Below, one piece after another: positions 1,976 to 26,993 of a DNA stretch of 28,060 nucleotides (positions are counted from its first letter, which is position 1; each line of letters opens with the position of its first letter). Under the pieces are notes generated by a model, which did no database searches, was not told where the DNA came from, and was given only the letters and a program-made list of their open reading frames with translations. Position numbers and translations under genes: made by a program. The stretch lies in assembly GCA_964349145.1 (NCBI GenBank), contig CAYGFN010000001.1, forward strand, positions 8,683 to 36,742, read 5' to 3'. This stretch comes from an uncultured Candidatus Saccharibacteria bacterium (lineage in GTDB: Bacteria; Patescibacteriota; Minisyncoccia; Phycocordibacterales; UBA2100).

Positions 1976-1986
1976 CGCGTCGCGAG

Positions 1987-2054
1987 TATACCCCGTGAGA
2001 TATGTAACTACTAATTTCCCTAGGAAGAACGACTGGATTATCTCATGGGGTATA
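1987..2054 (+). repeat. Inverted-repeat element, family A copy 1 (36-nt interior)
   Basis: TATACCCCGTGAGATA (1987-2002) ... TATCTCATGGGGTATA (2039-2054), between the divergent SET gene and hisS. Confidence 0.9.
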
Positions 2055-2067
2055 GCATAATGCTGCC

Positions 2068-3327
2068 ATGTCCGAGCGAAAGAAAATATCCACCGAGAGC
2101 TACAAAGGGGTGCGTGACTTCTACCCTGAGGATCAGTTCGTGCAGCGATACATGTTTGAGCATATGGAGCGCGTCTGCGAGCTGTATGGCTACGAGGAGT
2201 ACAATGCCTCCGTACTTGAGCCTGCCGAGCTTTACCGCGCCAAGTCCTCTGATGAAATCGTCAACGACCAGACGTACACCTTTACCGATCGTGGCGATCG
2301 CGAGGTGACACTCCGCCCCGAAATGACGCCGACCTTTGCACGCCTCGTCGCAGCAAAATCGCGAGAAATTCCGATGCCTGCGCGATGGTACTCCATACAA
2401 AATTTCTTTCGCTACGAACGCCCACAACGAGGACGCGTGCGTGAATTCTGGCAGCTCAATGCGGACATCGTCGGAGCATCCGGCGTCGAAGCAGATGCAG
2501 AGGTGATTTCCATGGCACACGCGATTATGCGCAGCCTCGGAGCAGAAGAGCGTGATTTCGAGATTCGGGTCTCGGACCGCCGCATACTGGACTCGCTCTT
2601 TGAAGAAGTGAGTGTCGCGGAGGGAGACCGCGCCGAGGTCATGCGCCTCCTCGACCGACGAGAGAAAATTGATAATTTCGCTTCGCAACTTGAAGAGCTG
2701 GTCGGCAGCGAGAAATCCGGTGCACTCGTGAACAAAATTGATACCATCACATCGTCTGCATACCTTGAGGAACTTCGGATAATGCTCGAGCAGCTCGGCG
2801 TCCGGAATATGATTGTAGATACAAAAATTACGCGCGGATTTGACTACTACACGGGTATGGTATTCGAAGTATTTGATACCACGCCGGAAAATCGTCGCTC
2901 CATGTTTGGCGGGGGCCGCTACGATGACCTGCTGGGCCTTTTTGGTGGCGAGAAAATCCCCGCCGTCGGATTCGCCATGGGAGACGTCACGGCGCGAGAT
3001 TTTCTCGAGACACACAATTTGCTGCCCGAGTACGCTCCCGCTACCGAATTGATGCTCTGCATCGTTGACGAGGATGCGACGAGCCACGCCATGCGGCTCG
3101 CGCAAGACCTGCGCCGCGAAGACGTGACCGTGGCGGTGAATTTTTCCGGCAAGAAAATCGGCGATCAGATACGTCAGGCGGACAAGATGAAAGTCCCCTT
3201 CGTCATCGCAATCGGCGGCAAAGAGCGTGACAGCGGACGCTACACGATAAAAAATCTCTCCTCCGGGCAAGAAATGACCTTGCCGGCGGATCGCATTTCA
3301 GAGCACTTGTTTTCATCCCTCGGATAG
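2068..3327 (+). CDS. hisS: Histidine--tRNA ligase
   Basis: YKGVRDFYP, LRPEMTP, FRYERPQRGRVREFWQ, RGFDYYTG and GGGRYD motifs, plus a C-terminal anticodon-binding domain. Confidence 0.97.
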   Translation: MSERKKISTESYKGVRDFYPEDQFVQRYMFEHMERVCELYGYEEYNASVLEPAELYRAKSSDEIVNDQTYTFTDRGDREVTLRPEMTPTFARLVAAKSREIPMPARWYSIQNFFRYERPQRGRVREFWQLNADIVGASGVEADAEVISMAHAIMRSLGAEERDFEIRVSDRRILDSLFEEVSVAEGDRAEVMRLLDRREKIDNFASQLEELVGSEKSGALVNKIDTITSSAYLEELRIMLEQLGVRNMIVDTKITRGFDYYTGMVFEVFDTTPENRRSMFGGGRYDDLLGLFGGEKIPAVGFAMGDVTARDFLETHNLLPEYAPATELMLCIVDEDATSHAMRLAQDLRREDVTVAVNFSGKKIGDQIRQADKMKVPFVIAIGGKERDSGRYTIKNLSSGQEMTLPADRISEHLFSSLG

Positions 3328-3362
3328 GTTCTCCAAAAATGGTGCGTGATATACTCCCCTCG

Positions 3363-3932
3363 ATGCGCGTCGTGACATTTGATATTGAGACGGCCAACTG
3401 GCTCTCTGAAGGCTCCGGCATGTCGGATTTGAACATCGCAATCGCGTGTATCCACGACTCCGAGACCGATTCCTACTCGAGCTATCTCGAATCCGAGCTC
3501 CCGCAGCTCTGGCCCATCCTCGAGCGCACCGACATGCTCGTCGGCTACAATTCGAATCATTTCGACATCCCGCTCCTTAATAAATACTACCCCGGTGATC
3601 TCACCAAAATCAAAAGCCTCGACCTCCTCCTCGAGGTCAAAAACGTGCTGGGAAGGAGCCTGCGCCTTGATGCTATTGCCGAAGGCACGCTCGGCACCAA
3701 AAAGACTGGGAGCGGCGCACAGTCGCTCCAGTGGTGGCGCGCTGGCGAAATTGATAAAGTCCGGCAGTACTGCATCAAGGATGTGGAAATCACCAGGCGG
3801 ATTTTTGACTACGCGATGGAAAAAGGCGGCATCACATACAAAGAACTCGGCCGCTCACACGAGGTAAAGCTCGATACTTCGAACTGGCTCACCCCCGCAA
3901 ACAAGGGAATGACTTTTTCCCTCGGTTTCTAA
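3363..3932 (+). CDS. RNase H-like / DEDD exonuclease-fold protein (YprB/RNase_H_2-like)
   Basis: VTFDIET, LVGYNSNHFDIP, YCIKDVEIT motifs; TATACT 7 nt before ATG 3363. Confidence 0.8.
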   Translation: MRVVTFDIETANWLSEGSGMSDLNIAIACIHDSETDSYSSYLESELPQLWPILERTDMLVGYNSNHFDIPLLNKYYPGDLTKIKSLDLLLEVKNVLGRSLRLDAIAEGTLGTKKTGSGAQSLQWWRAGEIDKVRQYCIKDVEITRRIFDYAMEKGGITYKELGRSHEVKLDTSNWLTPANKGMTFSLGF

Positions 3933-3943
3933 ATCTAAATCGG

Positions 3944-4016
3944 TGCCTGGGATCAGATTTGCACTGATGACCCTTCCCTCTTCAGGGGAATGCTCTACTA
4001 ACTGAGCTACCCAGGC
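3944..4016 (-). tRNA. tRNA-Phe(GAA), CCA not encoded
   Basis: 73-nt cloverleaf GCCTGGG/CCCAGGC; anticodon arm TTCCC-CTGAAGA-GGGAA; atypical A18, G55, G37. Confidence 0.92.
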
Positions 4017-4108
4017 AAGTGAGGGAAAATGGGAAGGCTTGCCTTCACATTTTACCCGAGCGCCGCCTAGACACGAATGTACCCAGGCGAACGTCGACAA
4101 TATACCAT

Positions 4109-4417
4109 TTATTGAGCAGTGCTAGAAGCCGAAGGTGCGCCCTGCATGGTGTCCTTAAATCGCGAAAGTATCTGCATCCACTCGGCAAATTGCCCTTCGA
4201 GCTCCGTCTTCTTCCCCGACGCGCTGGTAACCGTCGTCTCGATTTGCTGGACAATTGGAGCGAGATACGTGAAGTACAACCAAATCGGGACGCCAAGTGC
4301 GAGTACGTACAAGAAAAGTCGCAACATGCCGCCCCAAAAAGCGTGCCGCTTCAGCGAATGCAGCATCGCATTGTTCTCCTTGGTGAGCCGGTAGATTTCC
4401 TTCAGCTGCGGATCCAT
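4109..4417 (-). CDS. Hypothetical single-TM protein
   Basis: Open frame with one TM segment (FLYVLALGVPIWLYF); TAGAAT 7 nt before ATG 4417. Confidence 0.7.
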   Translation of the reverse strand: MDPQLKEIYRLTKENNAMLHSLKRHAFWGGMLRLFLYVLALGVPIWLYFTYLAPIVQQIETTVTSASGKKTELEGQFAEWMQILSRFKDTMQGAPSASSTAQ

Positions 4418-4458
4418 GCCCGTCATTCTAACATTCACGTGCTACAGTATTTCCGTCC

Positions 4459-4530
4459 GCCCCCATAGCTCAATGGATAGAGCAGTCCCGTCCTAAGGGA
4501 GAGATGTGAGTTCGATTCTTGCTGGGGGCA
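4459..4530 (+). tRNA. tRNA-Arg(CCT)
   Basis: GCCCCCA/TGGGGGC acceptor stem, A20, anticodon loop GT-CCT-AA, TTCGA T-loop. Confidence 0.9.
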
Positions 4531-4767
4531 CTAGAGACCAAGCAATTGCTTGAGACGCTCCTCGTCGAAGCCGACGATGAGCTCGTTGTCGACCGTGATG
4601 ACAGGCACGCCCATCTGGCCGCTCCTTTGAATCATCTCCTGACGCTTTGCAAGATCGGACCCCACATTATGCTCCGTGTACGGCACATGATTGTCCGTAA
4701 AGAAATCTTTTGCAGCATGACAGAAGTGGCATGTCGGGGTTGAATAGATAGTGACGGTGTGTGCCAT
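4531..4767 (-). CDS. Glutaredoxin / NrdH-like redoxin
   Basis: YSTPTCHFCH, GQMGVPVI and IVGFD motifs; 78 aa from MAHTV. The ORF-track extension runs through tRNA-Gly and is spurious. Confidence 0.9.
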   Translation of the reverse strand: MAHTVTIYSTPTCHFCHAAKDFFTDNHVPYTEHNVGSDLAKRQEMIQRSGQMGVPVITVDNELIVGFDEERLKQLLGL

Positions 4768-4839
4768 AGCGTGTGTGCAAATGAATAAGGATTCGCAGTA
4801 TACCATTGCGCAGAATTCACCGACAAGGGGATATCTCGG

Positions 4840-4910
4840 TGCGGGTACCGGGAATCGAACCCGGGTCTCAACCTTGGGAAGGTCGCATTCTGCCACTAAA
4901 CCATACCCGC
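4840..4910 (-). tRNA. tRNA-Gly(CCC)
   Basis: GCGGGTA/TACCCGC acceptor stem, CGACC-TTCCCAA-GGTTG anticodon arm, GGTTCGATTCC T-arm; discriminator A. Confidence 0.93.
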
Positions 4911-4962
4911 TTACGGCATTAATCTACCACGAAGCCTGAATCTTGCAGCGAGCGGAGTGAGT

Positions 4963-5053
4963 GCGAGTATGTGGCGCGGAATCTCCCGCGGGCGAAGAGC
5001 CGAGGATTAAGGCTTTTCAGTGGGAAAAGCCGGGTTCCGCGCCGCATACTCGC
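4963..5053 (+). repeat. Structured repeat, family B copy 1
   Basis: 21-bp stem (4963-4983/5033-5053, two G-T pairs) enclosing a 49-nt core that is 47/49 identical to 12321-12369. Confidence 0.9.
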
Positions 5054-5066
5054 CGAACGAAGCCCC

Positions 5067-5441
5067 TTACCAGAAGATAAAGAATCGCTGCACCTTCTCG
5101 AGGAATGTGGGTGGCACTTCAACAGGCTCGGGGGTGGGTGGTTCCACGATGACAATAAGCCCCTCACCCTGCTTCCCGACGTCGTATTGTTCCCGAAGCG
5201 CCTCTTCCTGCCCGCGATCTGTTTTGAGCTTCTCGGTGTCACGACGAAGACGTTCGGCCTGCTCCTCAAGCTCGGATTGCTCGACTTCTGCATACTCACG
5301 AAGCGTCCGCGAGTCACGCTCCTTGCCGTAGACCTGCCACACGCCGATAGCCGCTCCGAGGACAACGAGCACTAGGACGAACGTCGCCGTACGCCTCAAA
5401 AAAAGGCGTACCGGATCATGCGTATTCCGGAAATTTGCCAT
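5067..5441 (-). CDS. Septum formation initiator family protein (FtsB/DivIC-like)
   Basis: N-terminal TM, coiled coil, then EEALREQYDVGKQGEGLIVIVE; TAGGAT 6 nt before the ATG. Confidence 0.75.
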   Translation of the reverse strand: MANFRNTHDPVRLFLRRTATFVLVLVVLGAAIGVWQVYGKERDSRTLREYAEVEQSELEEQAERLRRDTEKLKTDRGQEEALREQYDVGKQGEGLIVIVEPPTPEPVEVPPTFLEKVQRFFIFW

Positions 5442-5469
5442 TTCCGTATCCTATCATTACAATGCACCT

Positions 5470-5598
5470 ATGAGTTTTTTGTTTCATAAACGCACCAAGA
5501 AAGTCATCAACTTCTTTGCGGGTGGCATCGCCATCATCCTCATTTTGAGCATGGTGATTTTCTTCGCCCCGGGGATTCTGGAGCTTCTCTTGGCGTAG
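5470..5598 (+). CDS. 42-aa single-TM small protein, missing from the ORF track
   Basis: MSFLFHKRTKKVINFFAGGIAIILILSMVIFFAPGILELLLA*; TACAAT 6 nt before the ATG; fills the gap between the ftsB-like gene and lepA. Confidence 0.7.
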   Translation: MSFLFHKRTKKVINFFAGGIAIILILSMVIFFAPGILELLLA

Positions 5599-5607
5599 TA
5601 GCCACTC

Positions 5608-7392
5608 CTAAGTTTCTCGGATTACTTTGAGAAAGACGTCATTTGGGATGTCGACTTTTCCACGCGCGAGCATCTTTTTCTTGCCGCGCTTCTGCTTGTC
5701 GAGCAATTTATTCTTGCGCGATACGTCTCCGCCATAGAGATAGCCTGTCACGTCCTTGCGCATGGCGGATTTTCTTCGCGACGCAATAATCTTGCCATCC
5801 GCTTTTGCTTGAATCTTGAGCTCAAAAAGCTGTCTCGGAAGTAGCTTCTCGAGCTTCTCCACCATCGCTTCCGCCTCGTGCGCGACTCGTCGCTTGGATA
5901 CAATGCGCGCAAATGCAGGTACCGGATCTTCTGCGACAAGCACGTCGAGCCGCATCACATCGGCGTCCTTCATACCGGTGAGCGTGTACGAGAGTGATGC
6001 AAAGCCGCTCGAAATACTCTTGAGTTTGTCAAAAAAGCCGCGCATGAGTTCACGCAGAGGCATTTCCGCGTGCACCGCGGTCTTGCCATCAGGTAATGAT
6101 TCACTCTCTCCCACCACTGCTTCATGGTCGTACAGTATCTGTGCGATACCTCCCAAATATGCAGGCGGCGACATCACTACCACATCGGCCCAGAGCTCTT
6201 CGATTCGTTTTGCTTGCCCCGAATCGGGAAATCGTGCAGGCGCGTAGACATCCTCAATCTCCCCGCTTGGGTGAGTGATTCGATAGACTGTCGTCGGCAT
6301 GGTCACAACAAGCTCGAGATTAAATTCGCGCTTGAGCCGCTCGATGACGATTTCCAAATGGAGCATACCGAGGAATCCGCATCGAAATCCCTTGCCCATA
6401 ATTCCCGATGATTCTTCTTCGTACGAAAGTGATGAGTCCGAAAGGCGCAGTCGATCGAGCGATTGCCGCAATAGCGGGAGATCGTCCTGAGATTCCGGGT
6501 ACACGCTTGCCCAGATGACCGGAGTGGGTTGCTGGTATCCCGGCAATTCCGGTGCCGCGTTGCGCACCGAGACGACCGTATCGCCTACCGAGGCAATGCC
6601 CGGGCGCTTTACGCCCGTCACGATGTAGCCAATTTCTCCCTGCGCAAGTTCTTCGGCGGGTGTCTCATCCGGCATCATGCGCCCCACCTCGACTGCAATG
6701 AAATCCGCATTCGCGGCCGCAAAACGGAGCGCATCCCCTTTTTTAATCGAGCCACCAAAGACGCGCGTATACACAATGACTCCTCGATGGTCCGAATACC
6801 CGAAATCGAAAATGAGCGCCTGCGTTGCGGCTCCCGACGACGTCGGGGGTGGTACGCGCCGGACCACTTCATCGAGCAGATGCTCGACACCCTGTCCCGT
6901 TTTCCCTGATACCGGCAATACATCGGCCTCATCGCATCCGAGAAGGAGGGCGAGCTCGCTCGTGATGTCTGCCACTCGAGAAGCGGGAACGTCAATTTTG
7001 GACACCGCTGGCACGATGACGAGCCCCAATTCTTTCGCGACCGAGAGGACCGAGAGTGTCTGTGCTTCGATACCCTGAGTCGAGTCTACGAGCAAGACGA
7101 CGCCCTCGACCGCCTTGAGGGCGCGCGAGACTTCGTACGAGAAATCTACGTGCCCCGGCGTATCGATGAGATTAATGATGTAATCCGCTCCTCCCACCTT
7201 CCAGCTCATGCGCACGGGCTGCATTTTGATGGTGATACCTCGCTCGCGCTCGAGATCCATGCGATCAAGGACCTGCTCCTGCATGTTTCGCTTCTCAATG
7301 GTGTGAGTCAGCTCGAGCATGCGGTCGGCAAGAGTACTTTTACCATGGTCGATATGAGCAATAATGCTGAAATTTCTGATATTGGAAGACAT
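5608..7392 (-). CDS. lepA: Elongation factor 4 (LepA)
   Basis: MSSNIRNFSIIAHIDHGKSTLADR, ERERGITIK, LIDTPGHVDF, GFRCGFLGMLH, KLLDKQKRGKKKM. True start is 7392, not 7452. Confidence 0.97.
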   Translation of the reverse strand: MSSNIRNFSIIAHIDHGKSTLADRMLELTHTIEKRNMQEQVLDRMDLERERGITIKMQPVRMSWKVGGADYIINLIDTPGHVDFSYEVSRALKAVEGVVLLVDSTQGIEAQTLSVLSVAKELGLVIVPAVSKIDVPASRVADITSELALLLGCDEADVLPVSGKTGQGVEHLLDEVVRRVPPPTSSGAATQALIFDFGYSDHRGVIVYTRVFGGSIKKGDALRFAAANADFIAVEVGRMMPDETPAEELAQGEIGYIVTGVKRPGIASVGDTVVSVRNAAPELPGYQQPTPVIWASVYPESQDDLPLLRQSLDRLRLSDSSLSYEEESSGIMGKGFRCGFLGMLHLEIVIERLKREFNLELVVTMPTTVYRITHPSGEIEDVYAPARFPDSGQAKRIEELWADVVVMSPPAYLGGIAQILYDHEAVVGESESLPDGKTAVHAEMPLRELMRGFFDKLKSISSGFASLSYTLTGMKDADVMRLDVLVAEDPVPAFARIVSKRRVAHEAEAMVEKLEKLLPRQLFELKIQAKADGKIIASRRKSAMRKDVTGYLYGGDVSRKNKLLDKQKRGKKKMLARGKVDIPNDVFLKVIRET

Positions 7393-7393
7393 A

Positions 7394-7522
7394 TCATTTA
7401 CCCGCCTGCCCCGTTGGAAGCGTAGCTTTCCAACCGGGGTGATCAACCCCATTAGAGACGCGAAGCGCTCTAATGGGGCACGTGTGAGCGATTATGGAAA
7501 AGTTTCTGATGTTCTGAGACAT
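7394..7522 (-). pseudogene. 42-codon upstream ORF: duplicated lepA N-terminus with two in-frame 36-nt palindromic inserts
   Basis: MSQNIRNFSIIAH[TCPIRALRVSNG]VDH[PGWKATLPTGQA]GK*; TATAGT 8 nt before the ATG; the TGA ends 1 nt before the lepA ATG. Confidence 0.85.
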
Positions 7523-7532
7523 GGAGAGACAC

Positions 7533-7600
7533 TATACCCCGTGAGATAAAAGAACTCTAATTACCTGAACTGCGCGGGACGATGTATCTCATGGGGTATA
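7533..7600 (+). repeat. Inverted-repeat element, family A copy 2 (36-nt interior)
   Basis: TATACCCCGTGAGATA (7533-7548) ... TATCTCATGGGGTATA (7585-7600). Confidence 0.9.
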
Positions 7601-7613
7601 CCCCACTCATCGC

Positions 7614-9323: not shown

Positions 9324-9324
9324 A

Positions 9325-11643: not shown

Positions 11644-11726
11644 AGTGCCGATAATAGCACGGGCTCTCTCGCAAGAAGCAGGTGTGGATTTTGCGTGTAG
11701 GCCTTTACGAGACAGCCACAAATACG

Positions 11727-11732
11727 TATAAT
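11727..11732 (+). promoter_or_regulatory. -10 box of rnpB
   Basis: Perfect TATAAT 6-7 nt upstream of the predicted P1 helix. Confidence 0.7.
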
Positions 11733-11738
11733 GAAAGC

Positions 11739-12170
11739 CGCGTCAGACAGCCGCCCCGTGAGATAAGGCGTTCGAGATATTCTAGTTAAGTCGGGCATCA
11801 CTCACAGTCCCGCTTAGCATGGAAATCGGAATGTGTTATCTCATGGGGAGGAAAGTCCGGACACGCACCCGCCCTTTCTTAGAAAGAGCGGGTAGCAAGG
11901 TAGCGGGTAACACTCGTCGTGCGAGAGCATAGGGTTGCGAACAGAGACGCCAAGGCCGAGAGGCTGCGGGCTCCGCAAGGAGTAGCTCTGGTGGAAACAT
12001 CAGAGGTGCAACGGCAAAAAACCTACCTGCGTGCAAGACCGTGTTCGTCGGGAACCAATTGGACCTGACGAAAGAGTCGCTCGAGGTGTGTGGCAACACA
12101 CATCCCAGATACATGGCTGTCATAAGTGTCGCCGCAAGGCTCCCTTAACAGAATCCGGCTTATCGATGCG
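11739..12170 (+). ncRNA. rnpB: RNase P RNA with extended P3
   Basis: GAGGAAAGTCC (11848-) and ACAGAATCCGGCTTA P4 halves; P2 GACAGCC/GGCTGTC; P1 CGCGTC/GATGCG; GCAAG and CCCAGATACATG conserved segments. Confidence 0.93.
11754..11848 (+). repeat. Inverted-repeat element, family A copy 3 (71-nt interior), inside rnpB
   Basis: CCCCGTGAGATA (11754-11765) ... TATCTCATGGGG (11837-11848); lacks the outer TATA. Confidence 0.9.
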
Positions 12171-12177
12171 ACGAACG

Positions 12178-12203
12178 AGCGAAGCGTAAAAGCTTCGCTT
12201 TTT
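12178..12203 (+). terminator. Intrinsic terminator of rnpB
   Basis: AGCGAAGC-gtaaaa-GCTTCGCT followed by a T run. Confidence 0.7.
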
Positions 12204-12251
12204 CGTTTCCGAGTGAGGAGCATCGCTTTCGCGAAGCGAAAGTTGCGACGC

Positions 12252-12279: not shown

Positions 12280-12300
12280 TTTCAGATACCAGAGCGAGTG

Positions 12301-12389
12301 TAATCCCGTATTTCAGAACCTCCCGCAGGCGAAGAGCCGAGGATTAAGGCTTTTCAGTGGGAAAGGCCGGGTTCTGAAATACGGGATTA
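12301..12389 (+). repeat. Structured repeat, family B copy 2
   Basis: Perfect 20-bp stem (12301-12320/12370-12389) around the 49-nt core shared with 4984-5032. Confidence 0.9.
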
Positions 12390-17075: not shown

Positions 17076-17096
17076 GCCTCCATCCTACCGCAAGAG

Positions 17097-17216
17097 AGCC
17101 GGGAAAAAATCGGTGCGCACGAGGCGCGGAAAAAGTGTGGCGCGAGCCGTACAAAAGTACGGTGAGTGCGGCGCTGAGGCTCCGCAACGAAATGCCCAGC
17201 GGATTTTTTCTCGGCT
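17097..17216 (-). repeat. Structured repeat, family C copy 2
   Basis: Reverse complement carries the same core with identical N9/N4/N9 spacing as 1445-1511, in a different outer stem (AGCCGGGAAAAAATC/GATTTTTTCTCGGCT). Confidence 0.8.
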
Positions 17217-17248
17217 AAAAAGAAAAGCCCCGCGAAGGGGCTTCTCTT
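17217..17248 (-). terminator. Intrinsic terminator
   Basis: Minus strand AGAAGCCCCTTCGCGGGGCTTTTC followed by a T run. Confidence 0.7.
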
Positions 17249-17358
17249 AGTGACCGCCGAGTGACATGTAGAGGCACTTAGCTCGTAACTGTCCTATTAG
17301 TATCTCACGTATAGGCAACGCGAATGAGACGTGTGGGGATACCACTATCTCTCGTCAG

Positions 17359-18753: not shown

Positions 18754-18762
18754 CGGGCAGAT

Positions 18763-18864
18763 TATACCCCGTAAGATATCTATTCGAGAACATTGATCTA
18801 TCAAGATCAAACTGCTTTGCGCGAGTGTGGTACTTGGCGCGGCGTCCTTATCTCATGGGGTATA
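18763..18864 (+). repeat. Inverted-repeat element, family A copy 4 (70-nt interior)
   Basis: TATACCCCGTAAGATA (18763-18778) ... TATCTCATGGGGTATA (18849-18864). Confidence 0.88.
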
Positions 18865-18875
18865 CCGCAGCCACG

Positions 18876-21800
18876 CTACTGCGATCCGACTCCCTGTTGC
18901 TCTGAGGTCCAGATCACAGTATCGGCATTATTCACGTGGATGGTGACCGCCGCGGATGTCTTCGTGTTCCCGTTTGTATCAATCGCCGTCGCACTCACCG
19001 TATGTGCCCCATCTGCGACGGAGGTGCTCCCCCACTCAACGACATAGGGGCCGCTGGGGAAAACCGGTCCGACGACTACGCCATCAATCCTGAATTGCAC
19101 ACTCCTGAGTCCAATGTTATCGGAAGCTGAAGCGGACAACGTTACCACTCCTGAGACCGCCGCATCCGCGGCAGGTGCCGTGATTGAAACCGTCGGCAGT
19201 GTCGTATCGGTACTTGCTGGCGTCGGAGGAATGTTGATTGTCTTCGCATTGGTCAGCGTGCCGGTCATGATAGCGGGATCACAGACAACGGGACCGGTGT
19301 AGCCGCTCATTCGCGGAAGCGTCCCTCGCGTGCCGGATTGCATACCAGCAGAATTAATATTCTTCGCATAGCCGCTGATCCAGTGCGTCCCTTTCGTCAA
19401 TCCGGTGAAGATCACGCGAAATCCTTTGGTCGGCGTAAAGCCTTTCGTGAACGTGCCATCCGCATTCACCGCGGCACCGCAGGCCAATGCTATGTCATGC
19501 GAATTGTTGTTGCGGATGACATCGGCCTTCACCTGGCCGAGCTTGGTCGAGCCTTCGTAGAGCTCAATCTCAAGATCCGTGCCCAGATTATCGAGATCGC
19601 ATGCCCATCCGCTGATGGAGCAGTTCTGATTATCTTGGTTCGGCTGACCGATGTTTCCGATGGGAGTGTGGTTATTGTGTGCAGGAACCGTTGTCACGAT
19701 GACTTTTTTGCTGCAGGTACCCGTCCCCGCCGCGTTGGTGACGCTAAGCGTATAGGTATAGGTGCCTGCCGTCGCGGGCGGCGTGAGTGTGCGGGTTCCT
19801 GTAGGGAGTGCAATCGCACCGGAGAGTAGTGTCGCCCCCTGCTTCAGAGTTGCCGAAGTCGGCGCGCTGGTTGAAGTCCACGAAAGCGTAATCGGAGTGC
19901 TCGCCGTCGCCGTTGCAGGAGCGATCAGGGCGCAGGTGGGCGTTGTGGTCGCGGGATTCGAAACGCGTATCGCACGCGATGATGCGGTTCGAATATTACC
20001 GTTGACATCGCTTACGGTCGCCGAGAGCGTGTGCGTGCCATTCGGTATTGAGAGGCTGTTCCATACGATTTGGTACGGGGCCACACGGTCTCTGCTCCCG
20101 ACATTTGCTCCGTCGATCTGGAAGATGACGCGGCTCACGTCGACGTTGTCCGATGCGTCTGCGGAAAGTACGACGGCGTTCCCGGAGACGACCGCATTGA
20201 CCGCTGGCGCAGTGATAGAGATGCTCGGAAGAATGGAATCAGGAGTTATCACGTATCGGAATGTGCTGACAGGTGACGGCTGCACCCCGCCACCGGTAAC
20301 CACGGCAAAGACGCTCGCAAGCATACTCCGCACCGATTCGTACACGGCAGCGACAAACGATTTTGAGGCCGAGACGGGCGTCGCTGACGGACACGCGATT
20401 GCCTTGAGCGTTACCGTTTCGGTAATCGTAATCGGCGCAGTATAGACGAGTCCGGTCGTACACGTAGGCGCCGTACCATCAAATGTATAGTGAATAGATC
20501 CTGCGCCAGGAGCACTCAAGGTGATGCGCATCGGTCGATCGTAGGTCCCCGGGGACACAGACACGACGGGGACAGGGAGCGGTGTCGCAACTTGATTCGA
20601 GACTTGTACCACTGTAGTCACAGACGTGCGCGCGTTGCCACTCGTATCGCGCGCTGTCGCAGTAATCGAGTGCGAGCCATTTGCGACGGCCGAACTATTC
20701 CACTGTACCGTGTACGGCTGCGCAGTATCGGGAGCGCCGACATTCTTGCCGTCAACTAAGAATTGCACACTCGCGATCGCCCTATTATCCGACGCCATCG
20801 CTGAGAGAGTCACTGCTGAGCCGGATACCGTCGCACCGGTGGTTGGCGTCGTGATGGCGACCGTGGGCAGCGTCGTATCGACGCTAGCGGTATTCGCTAC
20901 GGTCACCGTGCGCGTACTCGTTGCGCGATTCCCTGCCGCGTCGCGCGCGACGACGTTCAGCGTGCGTGCGCCGTTCGGGACGAGCGTCGTGTTCCATGGG
21001 TATGAATAGGGCAAGGATGTGTCAGTGCCCATCGTCACACTCCCATTTTTGAATTCAACGGCGGTCACAGCGACATTGTCGCTTGCGGTAGCGGCGAGTG
21101 TGACCAGTCCGCTCACCGTGGCATTTGGAGCGGGAGCAGAGAAGGATACGGTCGGCGATGCCCCATCTACCCCTACCGGCACGGGGAAAATGATCGGCTG
21201 ATCAGCGCCCACGCCTGCAGGATAGCTGCACGCGGCATATGCGCTCGTCGTCTTCGAAGGATTGGTGCTGCTGCGGAAATCGAGCGCAAGTGTGTCACTT
21301 CCCTTCTTGATGCAGATAAGGCCGCTGTTCCATGCGGAGCGGATGAAGGGCGAATTATAGCCGAGTGCAGGTGAGAGGTTGAGTGTTGTCCCATTAATTT
21401 TTCCAAGCTGAGCCGTACCGTAAAACGTAAGAGTAGAAAAGGTCAATACGCCGTTATCGTTCGATAGCGGCTGTGCCCGGACCGCACGTTTGAATTTTTC
21501 GAAGTCATTGCCGTAATCCTTCGCTTCGTTGACGACTATGATGACCGGAGAGTCAGCTCTCAGCGTAATGAATCGCAAGTTTGATACGGGCGATCCTTCT
21601 GCGTGTGTCCATCCCGCGGAAGGCGTCCATTCGTAACCGCCGGAAACCACACGAACAGCAGCATACGCATTCCCTTCCTTTACGAAAATCCATTTCGGCT
21701 CCTCCCACACTTCATCGAGCGTCGGACTGAAATAGAGCTTGAGAAACACTGGGAGGTGCAGCGGCGAATTGGGTGGAGCTGGTGCCCATACCTGTGTGAT

Positions 21801-23213
21801 AAGCACATTTCGATCTTGAAGCGCCACGAACGGATCGAATGCATGAAAGGAGTCCCCGGGGGATTCGAATGCAGGTTCTACACCAACACCAATCTTTGCG
21901 TACATGTCGCCACTGAATACGACGCCCTCCCACCGATGTCCGGAATTGATGTAATCCCAGTCAGTGTTCACGCCGGCAGATCCCAGCACGTAACTCGGCG
22001 TCGTAAAGCCATACCGCACATTACTCCTCGTTGTCTCAAGAACATCCCAATGGTCGCCATTTTCGTTTGCATTTCCCGGTCCTGGCCATCGTTTAGCATA
22101 TGCGTATGTTCCGCGAGTGGCGGTATCCGCGGCCAATTTCACGACCGCGGCTGGCGGATAGTAGTTGCTCGTGGTTCGAGTGATATTGCCAAGCGGCGCG
22201 AATGTGCGCCCCGGGGAATTGAACATGAGGTCATACGAGCGGTCACTGAAGGAGTAGAAGCGATCATTGTTCTTAGTACGCGCCTTCGGGCCGCCGCGTG
22301 TCGTGTACAAGGTCTCCTCGGCCATATTGGCGTAGGCCAAGTCGAGAAACATCTCTGCCTTCTTGCGCAGCACCGGATCCTCTGCGAAATCGCGGATATT
22401 TGAATACGCGCCGATTGTTTCGTCTTCGTAAACAGGAGACGCTGCTTCGACGAAGAGACCGCGCTTCCCACGCTCGTCAATCCACGTAGAGATGTAATTG
22501 CGCCGTGCTGTGTATTGCTGCGCGAGCGTAGATCCGTCTGCGTAGCGTTGGGATGCGTAGGTCGGATTGTCTTTCAAAAATTGTGCCGCTAGAAAGCACC
22601 CTGTTGTTTTCGCTGCATGATGGTTTTCCGATCCGTATGATTCCCAGACGTTTTTATTCGCGGCCGCGAGCGTGCAAAATTGCTTCGCGACTGCCCACAT
22701 ACCCTGCTCCATTTTGGCTTGCGCTTGTGGAGTGATCTTGCCTGGCATATAGGGGCTTCCGCTCTTGAAGAGAGCATAGAGGCGCATGTAATCGACGGAG
22801 AACAGTCCAAAACCAAAATCCTCATGCGCGGGCCACACGTAGTGGCTCGAGGCAAAATAGCGATTGACGTCAGATGTACGCTGATTGAGCATAAAAGCGG
22901 CTATCCCGAAGCTTGTCCAACTAATGGGCCTGAGCGCCGTATCGGAGGTACCGGCGTCAGAACATTGGGCATCGCCGCATTTCAAGTCGCTGCCATTATC
23001 CACCATGACGAGGAGCGATTGGCGAAGGCGCTCTAGATAATCGCTCGGGAGATTCTGCATATAAGCCGGTGCCCAGGCGGCGCCGACAACAGCTGCAGAT
23101 TGAGAGTTCAACGGCACACTCGGACGAGTAGCCGTGAACATATGGAGGGCCCATAGTATCCCGCCGAGCAGCAGCAGGGACACAATGGCTTGCCGAGTGG
23201 TGAGTTTGGGCAT
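18876..23213 (-). CDS. Large exported/surface protein with an N-terminal helical enzyme-like domain and bacterial Ig-like repeats
   Basis: N-terminal TM/signal; four PTVxITxP...ASDN...VxF Ig-like repeats; one chitobiase/Fn3-like segment (VSPGTY...IHYTFDGTAP); Thr/Ala-rich. Confidence 0.8.
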   Translation of the reverse strand: MPKLTTRQAIVSLLLLGGILWALHMFTATRPSVPLNSQSAAVVGAAWAPAYMQNLPSDYLERLRQSLLVMVDNGSDLKCGDAQCSDAGTSDTALRPISWTSFGIAAFMLNQRTSDVNRYFASSHYVWPAHEDFGFGLFSVDYMRLYALFKSGSPYMPGKITPQAQAKMEQGMWAVAKQFCTLAAANKNVWESYGSENHHAAKTTGCFLAAQFLKDNPTYASQRYADGSTLAQQYTARRNYISTWIDERGKRGLFVEAASPVYEDETIGAYSNIRDFAEDPVLRKKAEMFLDLAYANMAEETLYTTRGGPKARTKNNDRFYSFSDRSYDLMFNSPGRTFAPLGNITRTTSNYYPPAAVVKLAADTATRGTYAYAKRWPGPGNANENGDHWDVLETTRSNVRYGFTTPSYVLGSAGVNTDWDYINSGHRWEGVVFSGDMYAKIGVGVEPAFESPGDSFHAFDPFVALQDRNVLITQVWAPAPPNSPLHLPVFLKLYFSPTLDEVWEEPKWIFVKEGNAYAAVRVVSGGYEWTPSAGWTHAEGSPVSNLRFITLRADSPVIIVVNEAKDYGNDFEKFKRAVRAQPLSNDNGVLTFSTLTFYGTAQLGKINGTTLNLSPALGYNSPFIRSAWNSGLICIKKGSDTLALDFRSSTNPSKTTSAYAACSYPAGVGADQPIIFPVPVGVDGASPTVSFSAPAPNATVSGLVTLAATASDNVAVTAVEFKNGSVTMGTDTSLPYSYPWNTTLVPNGARTLNVVARDAAGNRATSTRTVTVANTASVDTTLPTVAITTPTTGATVSGSAVTLSAMASDNRAIASVQFLVDGKNVGAPDTAQPYTVQWNSSAVANGSHSITATARDTSGNARTSVTTVVQVSNQVATPLPVPVVSVSPGTYDRPMRITLSAPGAGSIHYTFDGTAPTCTTGLVYTAPITITETVTLKAIACPSATPVSASKSFVAAVYESVRSMLASVFAVVTGGGVQPSPVSTFRYVITPDSILPSISITAPAVNAVVSGNAVVLSADASDNVDVSRVIFQIDGANVGSRDRVAPYQIVWNSLSIPNGTHTLSATVSDVNGNIRTASSRAIRVSNPATTTPTCALIAPATATASTPITLSWTSTSAPTSATLKQGATLLSGAIALPTGTRTLTPPATAGTYTYTLSVTNAAGTGTCSKKVIVTTVPAHNNHTPIGNIGQPNQDNQNCSISGWACDLDNLGTDLEIELYEGSTKLGQVKADVIRNNNSHDIALACGAAVNADGTFTKGFTPTKGFRVIFTGLTKGTHWISGYAKNINSAGMQSGTRGTLPRMSGYTGPVVCDPAIMTGTLTNAKTINIPPTPASTDTTLPTVSITAPAADAAVSGVVTLSASASDNIGLRSVQFRIDGVVVGPVFPSGPYVVEWGSTSVADGAHTVSATAIDTNGNTKTSAAVTIHVNNADTVIWTSEQQGVGSQ

Positions 23214-23303
23214 GAAAAAAGGATGAACATCATCCGCTACTCCATGACTGTAACATTGAACTCCTCGTCCAAATCTTCGAATGTGGACAGGTACACCTTA
23301 TTT

Positions 23304-23391
23304 TGGCGGAGGCGGAGAGATTCGAACTCTCGGTGCCTTGCGACACTCGTCCTTTCCAGGGACGTGCACTAGACCACTATGCGACGCCTCC
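23304..23391 (-). tRNA. tRNA-Ser(GGA), CCA encoded
   Basis: 88-nt class II cloverleaf GGAGGCG/CGCCTCC, anticodon loop CT-GGA-AA, long variable arm GTGTC-GCAA-GGCAC. Confidence 0.93.
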
Positions 23392-23634
23392 TCCTGAACC
23401 AAACTCTCGTTTGATTTGCTCTCTCTTATAACCTTTCTTATACTCGCGCTCAACACGAACTGATTCAAGCTCGGAACTCACTTCGATACTCTTGAGCAAA
23501 TCGAATGGTCGACGAGACTTCGTAGACGGCACGGCGCCGCGATTGTGCTCAGAGATTCGCCTTTCCAAATCATTTGTACGACCTACGTACAAATTGCCAT
23601 CCTTTTGACTCCGCAGTATGTAAACGAAAAACAT
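23377..23634 (-). CDS. Small stand-alone GIY-YIG nuclease
   Basis: FVYILRS...LYVGRTNDLERRISEHNRG...STKSRRPF; the last codons overlap the first 15 nt of tRNA-Ser. Confidence 0.9.
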   Translation of the reverse strand: MFFVYILRSQKDGNLYVGRTNDLERRISEHNRGAVPSTKSRRPFDLLKSIEVSSELESVRVEREYKKGYKREQIKREFGSGGGVA

Positions 23635-23642
23635 ACAGCTTT

Positions 23643-23689
23643 ACTAGACCCCTGCCTGCCTGCAGGCAGGACTATGCGACGCCTCCTCC
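23643..23689 (-). mobile_element. Duplicated 5' fragment of tRNA-Ser interrupted by a 20-nt palindrome-containing insert
   Basis: Exact copy of 23368-23394 (27 nt) with CCTGCCTGCCTGCAGGCAGG (23651-23670) inserted. Confidence 0.85.
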
Positions 23690-23694
23690 CACGC

Positions 23695-24210
23695 CTACTG
23701 CGTGGTCCCGCCATCGGCGGTGACGTGCTCAGAATTTATAGCACGTGCACGGCGACGGCGCTCGCGCGCATCACGGAAGTGAGCGCGCTGTTCGATAAGG
23801 CGCGCGAGCATGCGCCTCTCGAGCTCTGCTGCTTTCTGAGAAGCAATCCATCCGAGTGTCGCGAGCACCACGTTGATGGCGAGGACTCCGAAGAACGCGA
23901 TATAAAATTGCATCGTCCACGCAGGGGGAATCCCGATCGCGTGCGTAAGTAGAAAACTCCCCATCCCGACGACAACATCCATAAAGCGATTCTGTGGCGT
24001 CTCATGGATTTTCACCATCGCCTCCCACATTTCGTATGCCACAAAGCAGAGGAAGGCGATTACGGCAGTCGGGATAAACGGAAACCCGAAAATTTGAAAA
24101 CCGATTGCAACCGAGACGCCGGAGAGGAAGTGCACGACGCTCCAGAGATCAAGCCACTTCCCTTCGCGCCAGATGTCTGTCCGCACAAATCCGTTACGCG
24201 GACTATCCAT
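23695..24210 (-). CDS. Hypothetical membrane protein
   Basis: About 4 TM segments; WSVVHFLSG and YEMWE motifs; starts 1 nt after the htpX stop. Confidence 0.75.
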   Translation of the reverse strand: MDSPRNGFVRTDIWREGKWLDLWSVVHFLSGVSVAIGFQIFGFPFIPTAVIAFLCFVAYEMWEAMVKIHETPQNRFMDVVVGMGSFLLTHAIGIPPAWTMQFYIAFFGVLAINVVLATLGWIASQKAAELERRMLARLIEQRAHFRDARERRRRARAINSEHVTADGGTTQ

Positions 24211-24211
24211 A

Positions 24212-25105
24212 TTAGATGTGCATGCCCTGCAGCGCTGCGATGCGCTCTTCCACGGGTGGGTGCGTCGCGAAAAGTTTGCGCATGAGCGAGCCCTTGTTGC
24301 TCGGACCAAATGGATTCGAGATGTAGAGGTGCGCCGTGGCGCTCGTCGCGTGCTGCACGGGCGCTCCGTGGCTCGCAATCTTGTTCAGCGCGTTCGCCAA
24401 TCCCTCCGGGTAGCGCGTAAGAAGAGCGCCCGAGGCGTCGGCGAGGAATTCTCGCTTTCTTGAAATCGCGAGGTGTATGAGCTGCGCTGCTATCGGAGCG
24501 AGGATGAGACCAATGAATCCGACCACGAGGATAATGGGATTGACGTTGCGGTCTCGCCCCTCGCCGCCAAAAAGGCTCACGCGGAAAAGCATGTCTGCGA
24601 TGACCGAAAGGAATCCCGCGAGCACCACCGCGACCGTCATGACGAGAATATCGCGATTGCCGATGTGCGAGAGCTCGTGCGCGATGACCCCTTCGAGCTC
24701 TGCTCGGTCGAGCCTCGCGAGGAGGCCAGTCGTCACGGCAATCACCGAATGCTCGGGGTTTCTGCCTGTCGCAAATGCGTTTGGTGCGTCATCTTGGATG
24801 ATGTATACGCGCGGTTTCGGGAGCCCTGCCGTAATCGCAAGATTCTCAACGATGCGATGCAGTTCGAGATACTGCGTGGGATCTGCTTCTCGTGCGTGAG
24901 CTGATGAGAGTGCGATTCTATCCGAAAACCAAAACGCCGTGACGTTCATGCCAATGGAGAATGCGACCGCTACCCAGAGATACACGGGAGAGCCCATGTA
25001 GAGCGACACGAACCATCCGACCGCAATCACCACGAGGAAGAACCCCGTCATAAGTATCCAGGTCTTGGTTATGTTCTTGCCTTGCTGTGTGTAGAGTGAT
25101 GCCAT
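24212..25105 (-). CDS. htpX: Zinc metalloprotease HtpX (M48)
   Basis: APNAFATGRNP, GVIAHELSHI, ISRKREFLADASGA, ATHPPVEERI. Confidence 0.95.
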   Translation of the reverse strand: MASLYTQQGKNITKTWILMTGFFLVVIAVGWFVSLYMGSPVYLWVAVAFSIGMNVTAFWFSDRIALSSAHAREADPTQYLELHRIVENLAITAGLPKPRVYIIQDDAPNAFATGRNPEHSVIAVTTGLLARLDRAELEGVIAHELSHIGNRDILVMTVAVVLAGFLSVIADMLFRVSLFGGEGRDRNVNPIILVVGFIGLILAPIAAQLIHLAISRKREFLADASGALLTRYPEGLANALNKIASHGAPVQHATSATAHLYISNPFGPSNKGSLMRKLFATHPPVEERIAALQGMHI

Positions 25106-25114
25106 GGGGTTCAG

Positions 25115-25215
25115 TATACCCCGTGAGATATTCCGTCGGAATACCTCAAAATTCGCGTATTCTCGTCACGTTTCATTCTAGTTGCAACGCTATACTTTAT
25201 ATCTCATGGGGTATA
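25115..25215 (+). repeat. Inverted-repeat element, family A copy 5 (69-nt interior)
   Basis: TATACCCCGTGAGATA (25115-25130) ... TATCTCATGGGGTATA (25200-25215). Confidence 0.9.
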
Positions 25216-25225
25216 CAAAACTTCG

Positions 25226-25564
25226 CTATTTTCCGTAGCCGCCGAATCCTACCCACCCCGTGTCGAACACTGCATCGACTCTATATGTGCCGCGAGTAAA
25301 TACCGTGCCATTTTCGAGCAGATGCGTGACTTCGAGAATTCTTATAGTGGCGACCGGTTCTGAGAGTTGTTCATTCCCCTCGGTCTGAAGCAGCGGGGTC
25401 TTGCCGCCGATATTGTAGAGGCGCTGGTCACTCTTTAAAAAGGGGTACGCCTTTCCCACTTCCAGCTTTTCGGGAATGCACTCCGCTTCTTTGCGGCGAC
25501 CAGCCTTGAATTCCGCTTGGGAGCGGAGCGCAAGGTCGGGATTGAATTCAACTTTTATTCCCAT
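25226..25564 (-). CDS. Hypothetical protein
   Basis: Frame from MGIKVEFNPDLALR, starting 1 nt after the upstream stop; the ORF-track extension overlaps the upstream gene. Confidence 0.7.
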   Translation of the reverse strand: MGIKVEFNPDLALRSQAEFKAGRRKEAECIPEKLEVGKAYPFLKSDQRLYNIGGKTPLLQTEGNEQLSEPVATIRILEVTHLLENGTVFTRGTYRVDAVFDTGWVGFGGYGK

Positions 25565-25565
25565 A

Positions 25566-26321
25566 TTAGTGCCAGTCGGCCATCTTTTGTTCGACTTCGG
25601 AGGCTTTAAACGAAGCGTCTCGATTCCAATATTTCGGATCATTTCTTTGATGATATGCAAGTCGATTGTTAGCTTGCGCGATAAAGATGCGACGACGCTG
25701 CGTATCACATTCAACGGCAGTATCACCACTGCCTGTCCCTTTCGGTCCGGCTATCACGACTGGATCAACGCCAAGCACTTCTTGAGACACTCTTGCTACC
25801 AGCTTCACTGAAGCAACATAAGTTTCCGGGGACGTATCGTATCCGCCAAAAATGACTACGTCGATGGTGCCGGATTCGGAACGATCTTTTAGCGCGCGCA
25901 GAGTCACTCTCAAGTCATGCTCATACGCTTCTGATTGACTTCTGACCGCTAACTTGTCACCGATATTGGTTTCGCGCGCGTGCGCATCTTGATGAGTTAG
26001 AATGGAAATATTTTTATTGCCTTCGGTTCCGACTGCAAACAAGCCGATACAGTCGTAGTATTCGCTTGAGAACTTGTCACTTTCGTCTAGTTCAGATATC
26101 ACGTAAGACTCTTTGCCGCCATGTTTTTGCCCCAATCTCTTCCACTCTTTTTCGTTACCGTAATAGTCGACAGGCGTGGGTCTCGCCATAAGATCGAGAT
26201 TCTCTTCCTCAACTGGGAAGTATTTCTCATCACTTATGCACGCGGTAATGAGCCCGCGATTGAGCGACTCTTGTGACTGCAGTGCGATTTCTTGTGAACG
26301 ACGCTCGGCTCGTTCGCGCAT
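25566..26321 (-). CDS. Hypothetical protein, possible CheD-like Cys-His deamidase fold
   Basis: YDCIGLFAVG...ISILTHQD...VVIFGG pattern; starts 3 nt after the lemA stop. Confidence 0.55.
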   Translation of the reverse strand: MRERAERRSQEIALQSQESLNRGLITACISDEKYFPVEEENLDLMARPTPVDYYGNEKEWKRLGQKHGGKESYVISELDESDKFSSEYYDCIGLFAVGTEGNKNISILTHQDAHARETNIGDKLAVRSQSEAYEHDLRVTLRALKDRSESGTIDVVIFGGYDTSPETYVASVKLVARVSQEVLGVDPVVIAGPKGTGSGDTAVECDTQRRRIFIAQANNRLAYHQRNDPKYWNRDASFKASEVEQKMADWH

Positions 26322-26324
26322 AGG

Positions 26325-26882
26325 CTAGAAACTGACTGCGACAGGATTCTTGGCAGCCTGTTCACCTTCTGCGAGCTCGAAGAATTCGCTCTCTTTAAAT
26401 CCGAAACCCTTCGCGATGAGATTCGATGGGAAAGATTGCACCTTCGTGTTCAATTCCTGCACCACTGAATTGTAGAAGCGGCGGGCAGCCTGAATCTTAT
26501 TTTCTGTGTCCGAGAGTTCACGCTGCAACTCTACGAAGCTCGCGTTGGCTTTGAGATCCGGATACGCTTCCGATACAGCAAAGAGTGATTTGAGTGCTCC
26601 GGCAAGCATGTTTTCTGCCTGTGTGTGCTCCCCCACTGTCTGTGCACCCATCGCTGCAGTGCGCGCATCGGTCACCTTCTGAAGCGTGCCTGCTTCATGC
26701 GCGGCATATCCCTTGACCGTCTCTACGAGATTCGGGATGAGGTCGAAACGACGCTTAAACTGGACTTCGATATCCGACCATGCCTCTTTGACACGGTTAA
26801 CGAGCGTGATGAAACGGTTGTAGGCGCCGATTACGTAGAGAACGAGGACAGCTGCTACTCCTAAAAGAATGTATGTAGTCAT
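26325..26882 (-). CDS. lemA: LemA family protein
   Basis: AWSDIEVQFKRRFDLIPNLVETVKGYAAHE, EAYPDLKAN, ENKIQAARRFYN. Confidence 0.95.
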   Translation of the reverse strand: MTTYILLGVAAVLVLYVIGAYNRFITLVNRVKEAWSDIEVQFKRRFDLIPNLVETVKGYAAHEAGTLQKVTDARTAAMGAQTVGEHTQAENMLAGALKSLFAVSEAYPDLKANASFVELQRELSDTENKIQAARRFYNSVVQELNTKVQSFPSNLIAKGFGFKESEFFELAEGEQAAKNPVAVSF

Positions 26883-26892
26883 ATGCGAGAAG

Positions 26893-26993
26893 TATACCCC
26901 GTGAGATATAAAAATCTACCTTCACAATCCTTTCATGTAGCATGTCAAATACCGACCGATGTCAGCAATCGAACGCATGTCTCATGGGGATAC
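26893..26993 (+). repeat. Inverted-repeat element, family A copy 6 (69-nt interior, degenerate right arm)
   Basis: TATACCCCGTGAGATA (26893-26908) ... TGTCTCATGGGGATAC (26978-26993). Confidence 0.85.

Follow-up and report, generated by a model that had tools for sequence, protein, structure and literature searches.

A small mobile element in the TATA of -10 boxes of putatively leaderless genes in a Patescibacteriota genome, with a GIY-YIG nuclease as its candidate mobiliser

Introduction

How does the same short inverted repeat come to stand directly before the start codons of several genes, at the very place of their -10 boxes? The question is raised by a DNA stretch of 28,060 nucleotides, hereafter the window, from an uncultured, ultra-small Candidatus Saccharibacteria bacterium (assembly GCA_964349145.1, contig CAYGFN010000001.1, positions 8,683 to 36,742). 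An earlier note on this DNA had proposed that the arms of the repeat, here designated as family A, supply the TATA of these boxes. Comparisons with congeneric genomes and with metagenomes now identify family A as a small mobile element that inserts with a 4-bp target duplication. We consider it probable that this mini-element inserts in the TATA of the -10 boxes of leaderless genes, the duplication preserving the box, and that a small GIY-YIG nuclease is its mobiliser.

Family-A copies in the window

Window copies were found by repeat search and direct reading, and the source assembly (G000; 831 kb, 100 contigs, 55% G+C) was scanned for family-A arms. The ends of the element are 12-nt inverted repeats, CCCC[A/G]TGAGATA ... 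TATCTCA[C/T]GGGG. Five copies in the window are intergenic and a sixth lies at 11754-11848. In all five intergenic copies the plus-strand left arm is preceded by TATA, and this TATA, read on the minus strand, opens a TATAnT hexamer 7-9 nt before the ATG of a long open reading frame (ORF). The five hexamer-spacer-ATG arrangements are present as the earlier note described them, all on the minus strand. Pfam confirms the SET, DAO/FAD oxidoreductase, M48/HtpX and LemA assignments, as well as a HisRS gene divergent from SET. The copies, with their target-site duplications (TSDs) and boxes, are as follows.

1991..2050, minus strand: copy 1, 60 nt, TSD TATA at 1987-1990 and 2051-2054
1990-1985, minus strand: -10 box TATACT of copy 1, 9 nt, then ATG 1975 of the SET-domain gene
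2056-2061: CATAAT, 6 nt, then ATG 2068 of hisS, divergent from the SET gene at copy 1
7537..7596, minus strand: copy 2, 60 nt, TSD TATA at 7533-7536 and 7597-7600
7536-7531, minus strand: -10 box TATAGT of copy 2, 8 nt, then ATG 7522, originally the start of lepA and at present that of a 42-codon upstream ORF
18767..18860, minus strand: copy 3, 94 nt, TSD TATA at 18763-18766 and 18861-18864
18766-18761, minus strand: -10 box TATAAT of copy 3, 7 nt, then ATG 18753 of the DAO/FAD oxidoreductase gene
25119..25211, minus strand: copy 4, 93 nt, TSD TATA at 25115-25118 and 25212-25215
25118-25113, minus strand: -10 box TATACT of copy 4, 7 nt, then ATG 25105 of the M48/HtpX gene
26897..26989, minus strand: copy 5, 93 nt, right arm degenerate (TGTCTCATGGGG)
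26893-26896 and 26990-26992: flanks of copy 5, left TSD TATA and right TSD shortened to ATA
26896-26891, minus strand: -10 box TATACT of copy 5, 8 nt, then ATG 26882 of the LemA gene
11754..11848, plus strand: sixth copy, 95 nt, without TATA, forming helix P3 of the RNase P RNA

Empty sites and mobility

When the five nearest congeners were searched at the DNA level, the closest relative, G005 (LepA 90% identical), proved to be syntenic with the window. All five intergenic sites are empty in G005, and each carries a single TATA within an intact promoter in which the hexamer is followed by 6 to 9 nt and ATG. At the copy-1 site, the two pieces of the alignment abut and overlap by TATA; the resulting back-to-back promoter pair is exactly the sequence that had been predicted in the earlier note by deleting copy 1 and one TATA. 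The copy-2 site reads TATAGT, 8 nt and ATG, followed by the canonical LepA N-terminus, and the sites of copies 3, 4 and 5 read TATACT, then 6, 8 and 8 nt, respectively, then ATG. Since the hexamers are intact at these empty sites, the -10 boxes are older than the element. The arms thus do not supply the TATA of the boxes, as had been supposed, but split and preserve boxes that were already there. Orthologues of the 251-aa gene that separates htpX from lemA were also sought, but its conservation is too poor for empty sites to be obtained in this way.

Variation is also found within a population. Four metagenomes contain this DNA, and a 625-nt contig of run X1, with flanks identical to the window, joins 7532 to 7597, the 60-nt element and one TATA being missing. 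In the other three runs the contigs continue through copy 2, so that occupied and empty forms of this site coexist in one population. The copy-1 site has been hit independently and repeatedly in G090, in which the orthologous region (L094, G090:C4, about 48290-48750) contains four or more copies in tandem, with single TATAs between them and an assembly gap inside the array. In G076, which has almost no family-A copies, the same site holds a decayed relic that has lost an end and has 14 nt of interior in common with the G000 copy. A different repeat of ~60 nt (gagttacacccggacatatctctg...), not seen in G000, occurs as three tandem copies beside the empty copy-3 site of G005 (L117, G005:C5, about 54240-54430).

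Target duplication and element anatomy

Paired copies, with no more than one mismatch in their 12-nt ends, number 42 in G000 and 43 in G020, a congener (1.06 Mb, 5 contigs) fetched whole as an independent replicate. The 4-nt flanks are identical on both sides in 35/42 and 24/43 copies, respectively. Among the identical flanks of G000, 30/35 are TATA, and the others (TCAA/TCAA twice, TGTA/TGTA, TCTA/TCTA and CATG/CATG) are direct, not inverted; further 4-bp pairs in the congeners include TACA, TAAA, TAGA and TATG. Identical, non-palindromic direct flanks are the signature of a 4-bp target-site duplication, and the outer TATA is this duplicated target, no part of the element arm. The proposal in the earlier note of a mobile element targeting promoter TATA with duplication is borne out, the comparison with empty sites deciding for the 4-bp TATA over TA. 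Neighbouring tandem copies in G000 have one TATA in common, and such arrays arise because every insertion rebuilds GTATAC at both of its own ends.

Element lengths are quantised in G000, with 16 copies of 58-60 nt, 25 of 90-99 nt and one of 275 nt, and are mostly 93-102 nt in G020. The two shorter classes of G000 contain no gene, the sole coding member of the family being a unit of 275-278 nt. Arm counts range from 0 to 79 across 81 congeners, and 16 further families of the order yielded no real family-A copies. The two ends differ by one base (A-type versus G-type), and this difference is inherited in 37/42 copies of G000. The interiors are AT-richer than the genome (45% versus 55% G+C in G000), and as hairpins they fold no better than shuffled sequences (mean z ~0), with the exception of the RNase P copy, for which the transcribed strand has a folding z of -4.3. 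Searches in Rfam returned no family matching the element or nine cassette loci.

Several features are those of MITEs, or miniature inverted-repeat transposable elements, including terminal inverted repeats, TSDs with empty sites, a small non-coding size and ~40 copies per genome of 0.8-1.1 Mb. Internal sequence common to the copies and to an autonomous parent, which is also expected of MITEs, is all but lacking, with three related pairs among 81 interiors and no significant match to the interior of the coding unit.

Native promoters and the effect of insertion

The promoter architecture of G000 was surveyed with a census of 630 crude ORFs, taking the first ATG of each. Hexamers of the form TANNNT start 12, 13, 14 or 15 nt before this ATG (spacers of 6-9 nt) in 100, 33, 23 and 21 ORFs, against a background of ~8; the share of ORFs in which a -10 box lies 6-9 nt upstream of the ATG is ~28%. 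Words resembling a Shine-Dalgarno sequence are weak (peak of 21 versus ~8 background). As a gap of 6-9 nt between hexamer and ATG leaves no room for a leader, leaderless mRNAs are presumably a common architecture in this genome. The conserved N-terminus of LepA begins 8 nt past TATAGT. In 159 native, element-free promoters, G occurs at -14 in 62% and T at -15 in 43%, which corresponds to an extended -10 box, and the -35 score equals that of shuffled sequence. This evidence, drawn from sequence, suggests for this Parcubacteria genus a promoter that consists of an extended -10 box set directly on the start codon. The window provides an unoccupied example, which the earlier note had correctly pointed out:

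909..918: overlapping divergent -10 pair, with TACACT-7-ATG (minus strand) and TATCAT-6-ATG (plus strand), illustrating the native promoter architecture

Insertion splits such a promoter within its -10 box. Duplication of TATA leaves a whole TATAnT hexamer on the gene side, and the terminal GGGG of the element provides the G at -14/-13. In occupied promoters, GGGG fills positions -16 to -13, and both the hexamer and the -14 G are kept, which is the likely reason why insertions are tolerated before genes such as lepA and htpX. The core promoter would probably still be active, while everything upstream of -12 becomes element DNA, and promoter activity is predicted to be retained after insertion. 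Replacement of the -35 region, as put forward in the earlier note, is true by geometry but matters little, the native promoters having no -35 signal. A shared regulator or cruciform control of the adjoining genes, also suggested there, finds no support, the six adjacent genes being of unrelated functions. An outward -35 donated by the element was considered as well. The outward -35 score shows a small excess in the 16 short copies (2.59 versus 1.97 +/- 0.18 in shuffled sequences) and none in long copies; with native promoters also lacking a -35, this explanation was dropped.

Enrichment at -10 boxes and target preference

Genome-wide counts confirmed the enrichment of copies before start codons. 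Among TATA-flanked copies of G000, 25/35 have a leaderless-type start on one flank, compared to 152/1322 (11%) free TATA sites (odds ratio (OR) 19, p = 9e-16), and the corresponding figures in G020 are 17/25 and 225/2713 (OR 23, p = 4e-13). When only non-coding TATA sites are considered, the enrichment persists in G000 (24/35 versus 46/390; OR 16) and in G020 (OR 8). Seen from the side of the targets, 24/70 TATA-type -10 boxes are occupied among the non-coding TATA sites of G000, compared to 11/355 other sites, which by this crude count amounts to about one third of the TATA-type leaderless promoters of a reduced genome. It would thus appear that a selfish element can fill core promoters densely and yet not destroy them, since the -10 box is restored by the duplication.

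The preferred target is 5'-(G)TATA(C)-3'. A G before TATA and/or a C after it is found at 29/30 TATA targets in G000 and 15/15 in G020, GTATAC being the commonest form, and target occupancy climbs with the number of G/C flanks. GTATACT is likewise the commonest native promoter form. Since the common promoter is an extended -10 of the type nGnTATAnT, GTATACT is both the best target and the commonest promoter.

A GIY-YIG cassette with family-A ends

The one coding copy detected in G000 points to a candidate enzyme.

G000 contig 5, 645-919: 275-nt copy containing a whole 80-aa GIY-YIG ORF, with its start 8 nt past the left end and its stop right at the right end

Equivalents of 277-278 nt were identified in G096, G009, G020 and G090, the five genomes carrying the unit at five different loci. 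The cassette proteins are 64-73% identical, and both ends are conserved at 12/12 positions in the five genomes. The 80-aa protein matches the Pfam GIY-YIG family over residues 1-66 (E = 1e-13), with UPF0213 BH0048 as nearest solved relative, and the five orthologues do not vary at the motif residues Tyr, Arg, His, Asn and Glu. Extended by two bases, the left end reads TGaGATAAT in 5/5 units and lies 6-8 nt before the ATG, indicating that the left end is the nuclease gene's own extended -10 promoter. Gene presence and repeat abundance are associated: the gene-positive genomes include the four highest arm counts of the 81 congeners (79, 71, 55 and 41), the fifth having 25 arms, and the median of the other 76 is 2 (Mann-Whitney p = 1e-4, a value overstated as relatives are not independent).

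A scan of one genome per species revealed 25 cassettes with family-A ends. In 10/25 cassette-bearing species (e.g., L148, L150, L153 and L162), the whole 80-aa gene lies inside helix P3 of the RNase P RNA, directly before AGGAAAGTCC. This is the helix formed in the window by the sixth copy. The RNase P RNA gene at 11735-12178 (plus strand) scores 95.3 bits with RF00010, just below the Rfam cut-off of 100, and P3 in G005 is minimal at the same place (CCCC-GCAA-GGGG). Related cassettes with variant ends of the CCCCGTTAGAGA type were found in Verrucomicrobiota, Planctomycetota, Bacteroidota, Desulfobacterota-like and other bins, and their right repeat encodes the protein's C-terminal LSLTG. The occurrence of variant cassettes across phyla indicates that the gene and its bracketing repeat are an old, widespread unit.

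In the mechanism that we propose, the 80-aa GIY-YIG nuclease would mobilise family A and would probably recognise the paired ends as a hairpin stem, as Ssn nucleases (see below) do their repeats; its role as mobilising enzyme and the chemistry of insertion are both inferred. If the nuclease is the mobiliser, transposition would proceed by a mechanism outside the known enzyme classes. A more far-reaching proposal, to which we give tentative credence and somewhat less than even chances, is that of a new transposon class whose sole enzyme is an 80-residue Ssn-like GIY-YIG nuclease. Such a transposon would have hairpin-paired ends, move the unit and its gene-less derivatives into melted or AT-rich -10 boxes and structural-RNA helices, and generate 4-bp duplications without a DDE, HUH, serine or tyrosine recombinase, with a single-stranded loop stage that would explain why interiors are scrambled while ends and lengths persist. 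Literature on GIY-YIG proteins with MITEs, RNase P, UPF0213 and leaderless promoters of CPR (Candidate Phyla Radiation) bacteria yielded nothing on the family-A element, and no description of a transposon kind coding only an 80-residue GIY-YIG nuclease was found in the literature searched.

Other small GIY-YIG genes occur nearby and elsewhere. A second one in the window (85 aa, 23377-23634, minus strand) has no family-A ends and overlaps a tRNA-Ser gene at 23304-23391. G000 has seven small GIY-YIG genes, and in the genus many such genes lie between inverted repeats of other kinds. Beyond the CPR, in L173 and L184-L186 (Dehalococcoidia, Scalindua and Cecembia), related GIY-YIG cassettes with repeats at their ends appear by eye to split genes resembling four-helix-bundle genes of the 23S rRNA intervening-sequence (IVS) type at a conserved position.

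Alternative explanations

Several observations weigh against a promoter-directed mini-element moved by the GIY-YIG nuclease. Seven congeners with 20-33 arms have no close homologue of the family-A nuclease, and a nuclease by itself is not known to generate target duplications. The interiors are essentially unique, with three related pairs among 81 copies of the two genomes, and have no significant match to the nuclease cassette or to the rest of the genomes, which is unlike ordinary deletion-derived MITEs; captured genome fragments and nuclease-gene remnants were ruled out as their origin on the same grounds. Intact ends and lengths with scrambled interiors could reflect either old, conservatively moving lineages under element-level selection on ends and length, or passage through a single-stranded, mutagenic loop as the element moves. 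In G000 it is the G-type end that points to the gene, in a ratio of 21:5, and this bias is reversed (7:13) in G020, so that orientation toward the gene was rejected as a general property. The transposase search covered three families, in assemblies that are metagenome bins and in which a transposase could be unassembled. Repeated insertion sequences tend to drop out of such bins, and 4-bp target duplications are typical of DDE transposition, as in the IS5 and IS701 groups. Together with the seven congeners that showed no close homologue, these points leave some room for ordinary MITEs moved in trans by an unassembled DDE-type transposase, the GIY-YIG gene being a passenger or an independent selfish gene with the same ends. 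We nonetheless regard this explanation as unlikely. In the five high-copy genomes, PF01609 (DDE_Tnp_1) has no match and PF00665 (rve) matches only in G009; no family-A end pairs more than 400 nt apart exist in G000 or in the 5-contig G020. The ORF and its ends have been kept together in five congeners, the variant form extends across many phyla with a right repeat coding for the C-terminus, and the left end doubles as the promoter of the nuclease gene. Homologues of Y1_Tnp (PF01797; IS200/RAYT-like) of 230-280 aa are present in 5/5 genomes searched, including G000:C5:15838-16161, C12:3159-3440 and six loci in G020, and none of the DDE or Y1 enzymes searched for is associated with family-A ends. 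These Y1 genes invite comparison with REPINs, doublets of repetitive extragenic palindromic (REP) sequences spread by a RAYT (Y1/HUH) transposase, which also have conserved arms and a looser spacer. A REPIN-like nature of family A is nevertheless very improbable: the single 12-nt arm is not itself palindromic, the copies are flanked by target duplications, which do not arise in HUH transposition, and every Y1 gene is separated by 2.3 kb or more from the family-A arm closest to it.

The choice of -10 boxes can also be read in two ways. Insertion might be aimed at (G)TATA(C) only, without any recognition of promoters, the concentration at -10 boxes resulting from the match between the target logo and the promoter consensus and from the purging of genic insertions. 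The rise of occupancy with G/C flanks fits this explanation, and all GTATAC sites within coding sequence are free of the element (114 sites in G000 and 160 in G020). The two genomes differ for the GTATAC class: in G000, 9/20 promoter-like sites are occupied versus 2/37 other non-coding sites, whereas in G020 occupied sites are no more promoter-like than free ones (3/35 versus 5/44). At one-sided sites, the trend is toward promoters in both genomes (11/80 versus 7/135 in G000; 6/80 versus 1/183 in G020). Part of the -10 enrichment may therefore be simply sequence preference and loss of harmful insertions, which again counts against promoter targeting, and a purely sequence-directed insertion is a serious possibility, if not the one that we favour. 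Far less room is left for inverted repeats that are not mobile at all, and act as operators or as a fixed promoter module of a regulon bound by a regulator. Perfectly conserved 12-nt arms with variable interiors, placed immediately upstream of the -10 boxes of many genes, might be expected of operators. This explanation is contradicted by the 5/5 empty sites in the nearest relative and by the presence/absence polymorphism within a population, and neither the direct, non-palindromic 4-bp duplications around many copies, the tandem arrays, the non-promoter copies, the copy within RNase P RNA nor the decayed relic of G076 at the copy-1 site agrees with it; we give it almost no credence. Insertion of a mobile mini-element in promoter TATA thus remains the reading that we prefer.

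Comparison with known systems

Family A resembles several known systems in part. Some insertion sequences, for example those of the 4-bp-duplicating IS5 and IS701 groups, give rise to hybrid promoters or insert in promoters. Terminal inverted repeats, short target duplications and insertions upstream of genes with promoter effects are common to them and to family A, but they use a DDE transposase and usually donate an outward -35, whereas family A keeps the host -10 box and no transposase was found. REP/REPIN-RAYT systems similarly comprise dispersed inverted-repeat doublets with a variable spacer and a link to a single small nuclease-type gene; their REP units are palindromic, lack TSDs and depend on a Y1 (HUH) enzyme, none of which is true of family A.

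The Correia elements of Neisseria (CREE/NEMIS), with which the earlier note had compared the repeat, duplicate TA, have a box within a 26-bp repeat and contain a conserved core (PMC2649163, PMC2229807). As to the outcome, the analogy is sound. Both elements are short and gene-less, with inverted repeats, and occur in many copies next to genes, with duplicated TA-containing targets, and in both a -10 box lies at the junction of element and flank, so that the promoter of the neighbouring gene can be shaped. It fails for the anatomy: the Correia duplication is TA and the TATA(G/A)T-type box is inside the repeat, while family A duplicates 4 bp and its hexamer is the pre-existing target promoter. 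Furthermore, Correia copies have a common core and an IHF site, in contrast to the unrelated interiors of family A, and no protein-coding partner is known for them, whereas family-A ends also bracket the GIY-YIG cassette.

The closest published system appears to be that of the Ssn nucleases, single-domain GIY-YIG proteins of 94 aa (Chenal et al. 2025, PMC11893778). Ssn proteins require single-stranded DNA to bind the hairpin repeat cognate to them, and they cut a few nt upstream of it; this repeat, NTS/SRM, flanks their genes and is dispersed in hundreds of copies, and the authors remarked on an insertion-sequence-like arrangement while reporting no target duplications or empty sites (PMC11893778). 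In both systems, a single-domain GIY-YIG protein of ~80-95 aa is encoded by a gene that is apparently flanked by its own repeat, and tens to hundreds of dispersed copies of this repeat occur, their abundance tracking the presence of the gene. NTS/SRM is a complete hairpin of ~30 nt that is found singly, whereas family A consists of two 12-nt half-sites pairing across 35-250 nt, a single inverted repeat enclosing its gene between its two halves in place of two whole hairpins. The TSDs and empty sites observed for family A have not been reported for Ssn, nor has promoter targeting. Family A thus adds dispersed repeats tied to a minimal GIY-YIG gene, and its TSDs and empty sites support the suggestion, put forward for the Ssn system, that such gene-plus-repeat units are mobile.

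Additional observations at lepA and RNase P

The first 13 codons of lepA (MSQNIRNFSIIAH) are duplicated (window 7522-7354, minus strand), and the duplicates are separated by two hairpins with UNCG-type loops, the first of which is bounded by CCCCATTAGAG-type ends. A TGA located 1 nt before the true lepA ATG at 7392 closes the upstream ORF. The same duplicated arrangement occurs in G084, and lepA of G005 is plain.

In alignments with 5/5 relatives, including G005:C5:47115-47451, the orientation of the RNase P RNA gene is opposite to that of its syntenic flanks, indicating that a segment of ~0.4 kb (11735-12178) is inverted in G000. A different repeat family is represented by a 59-nt core that is 95% identical between 12301-12389 and 4979-5037 and is closed at 12301-12389 by a perfect 20-bp stem.

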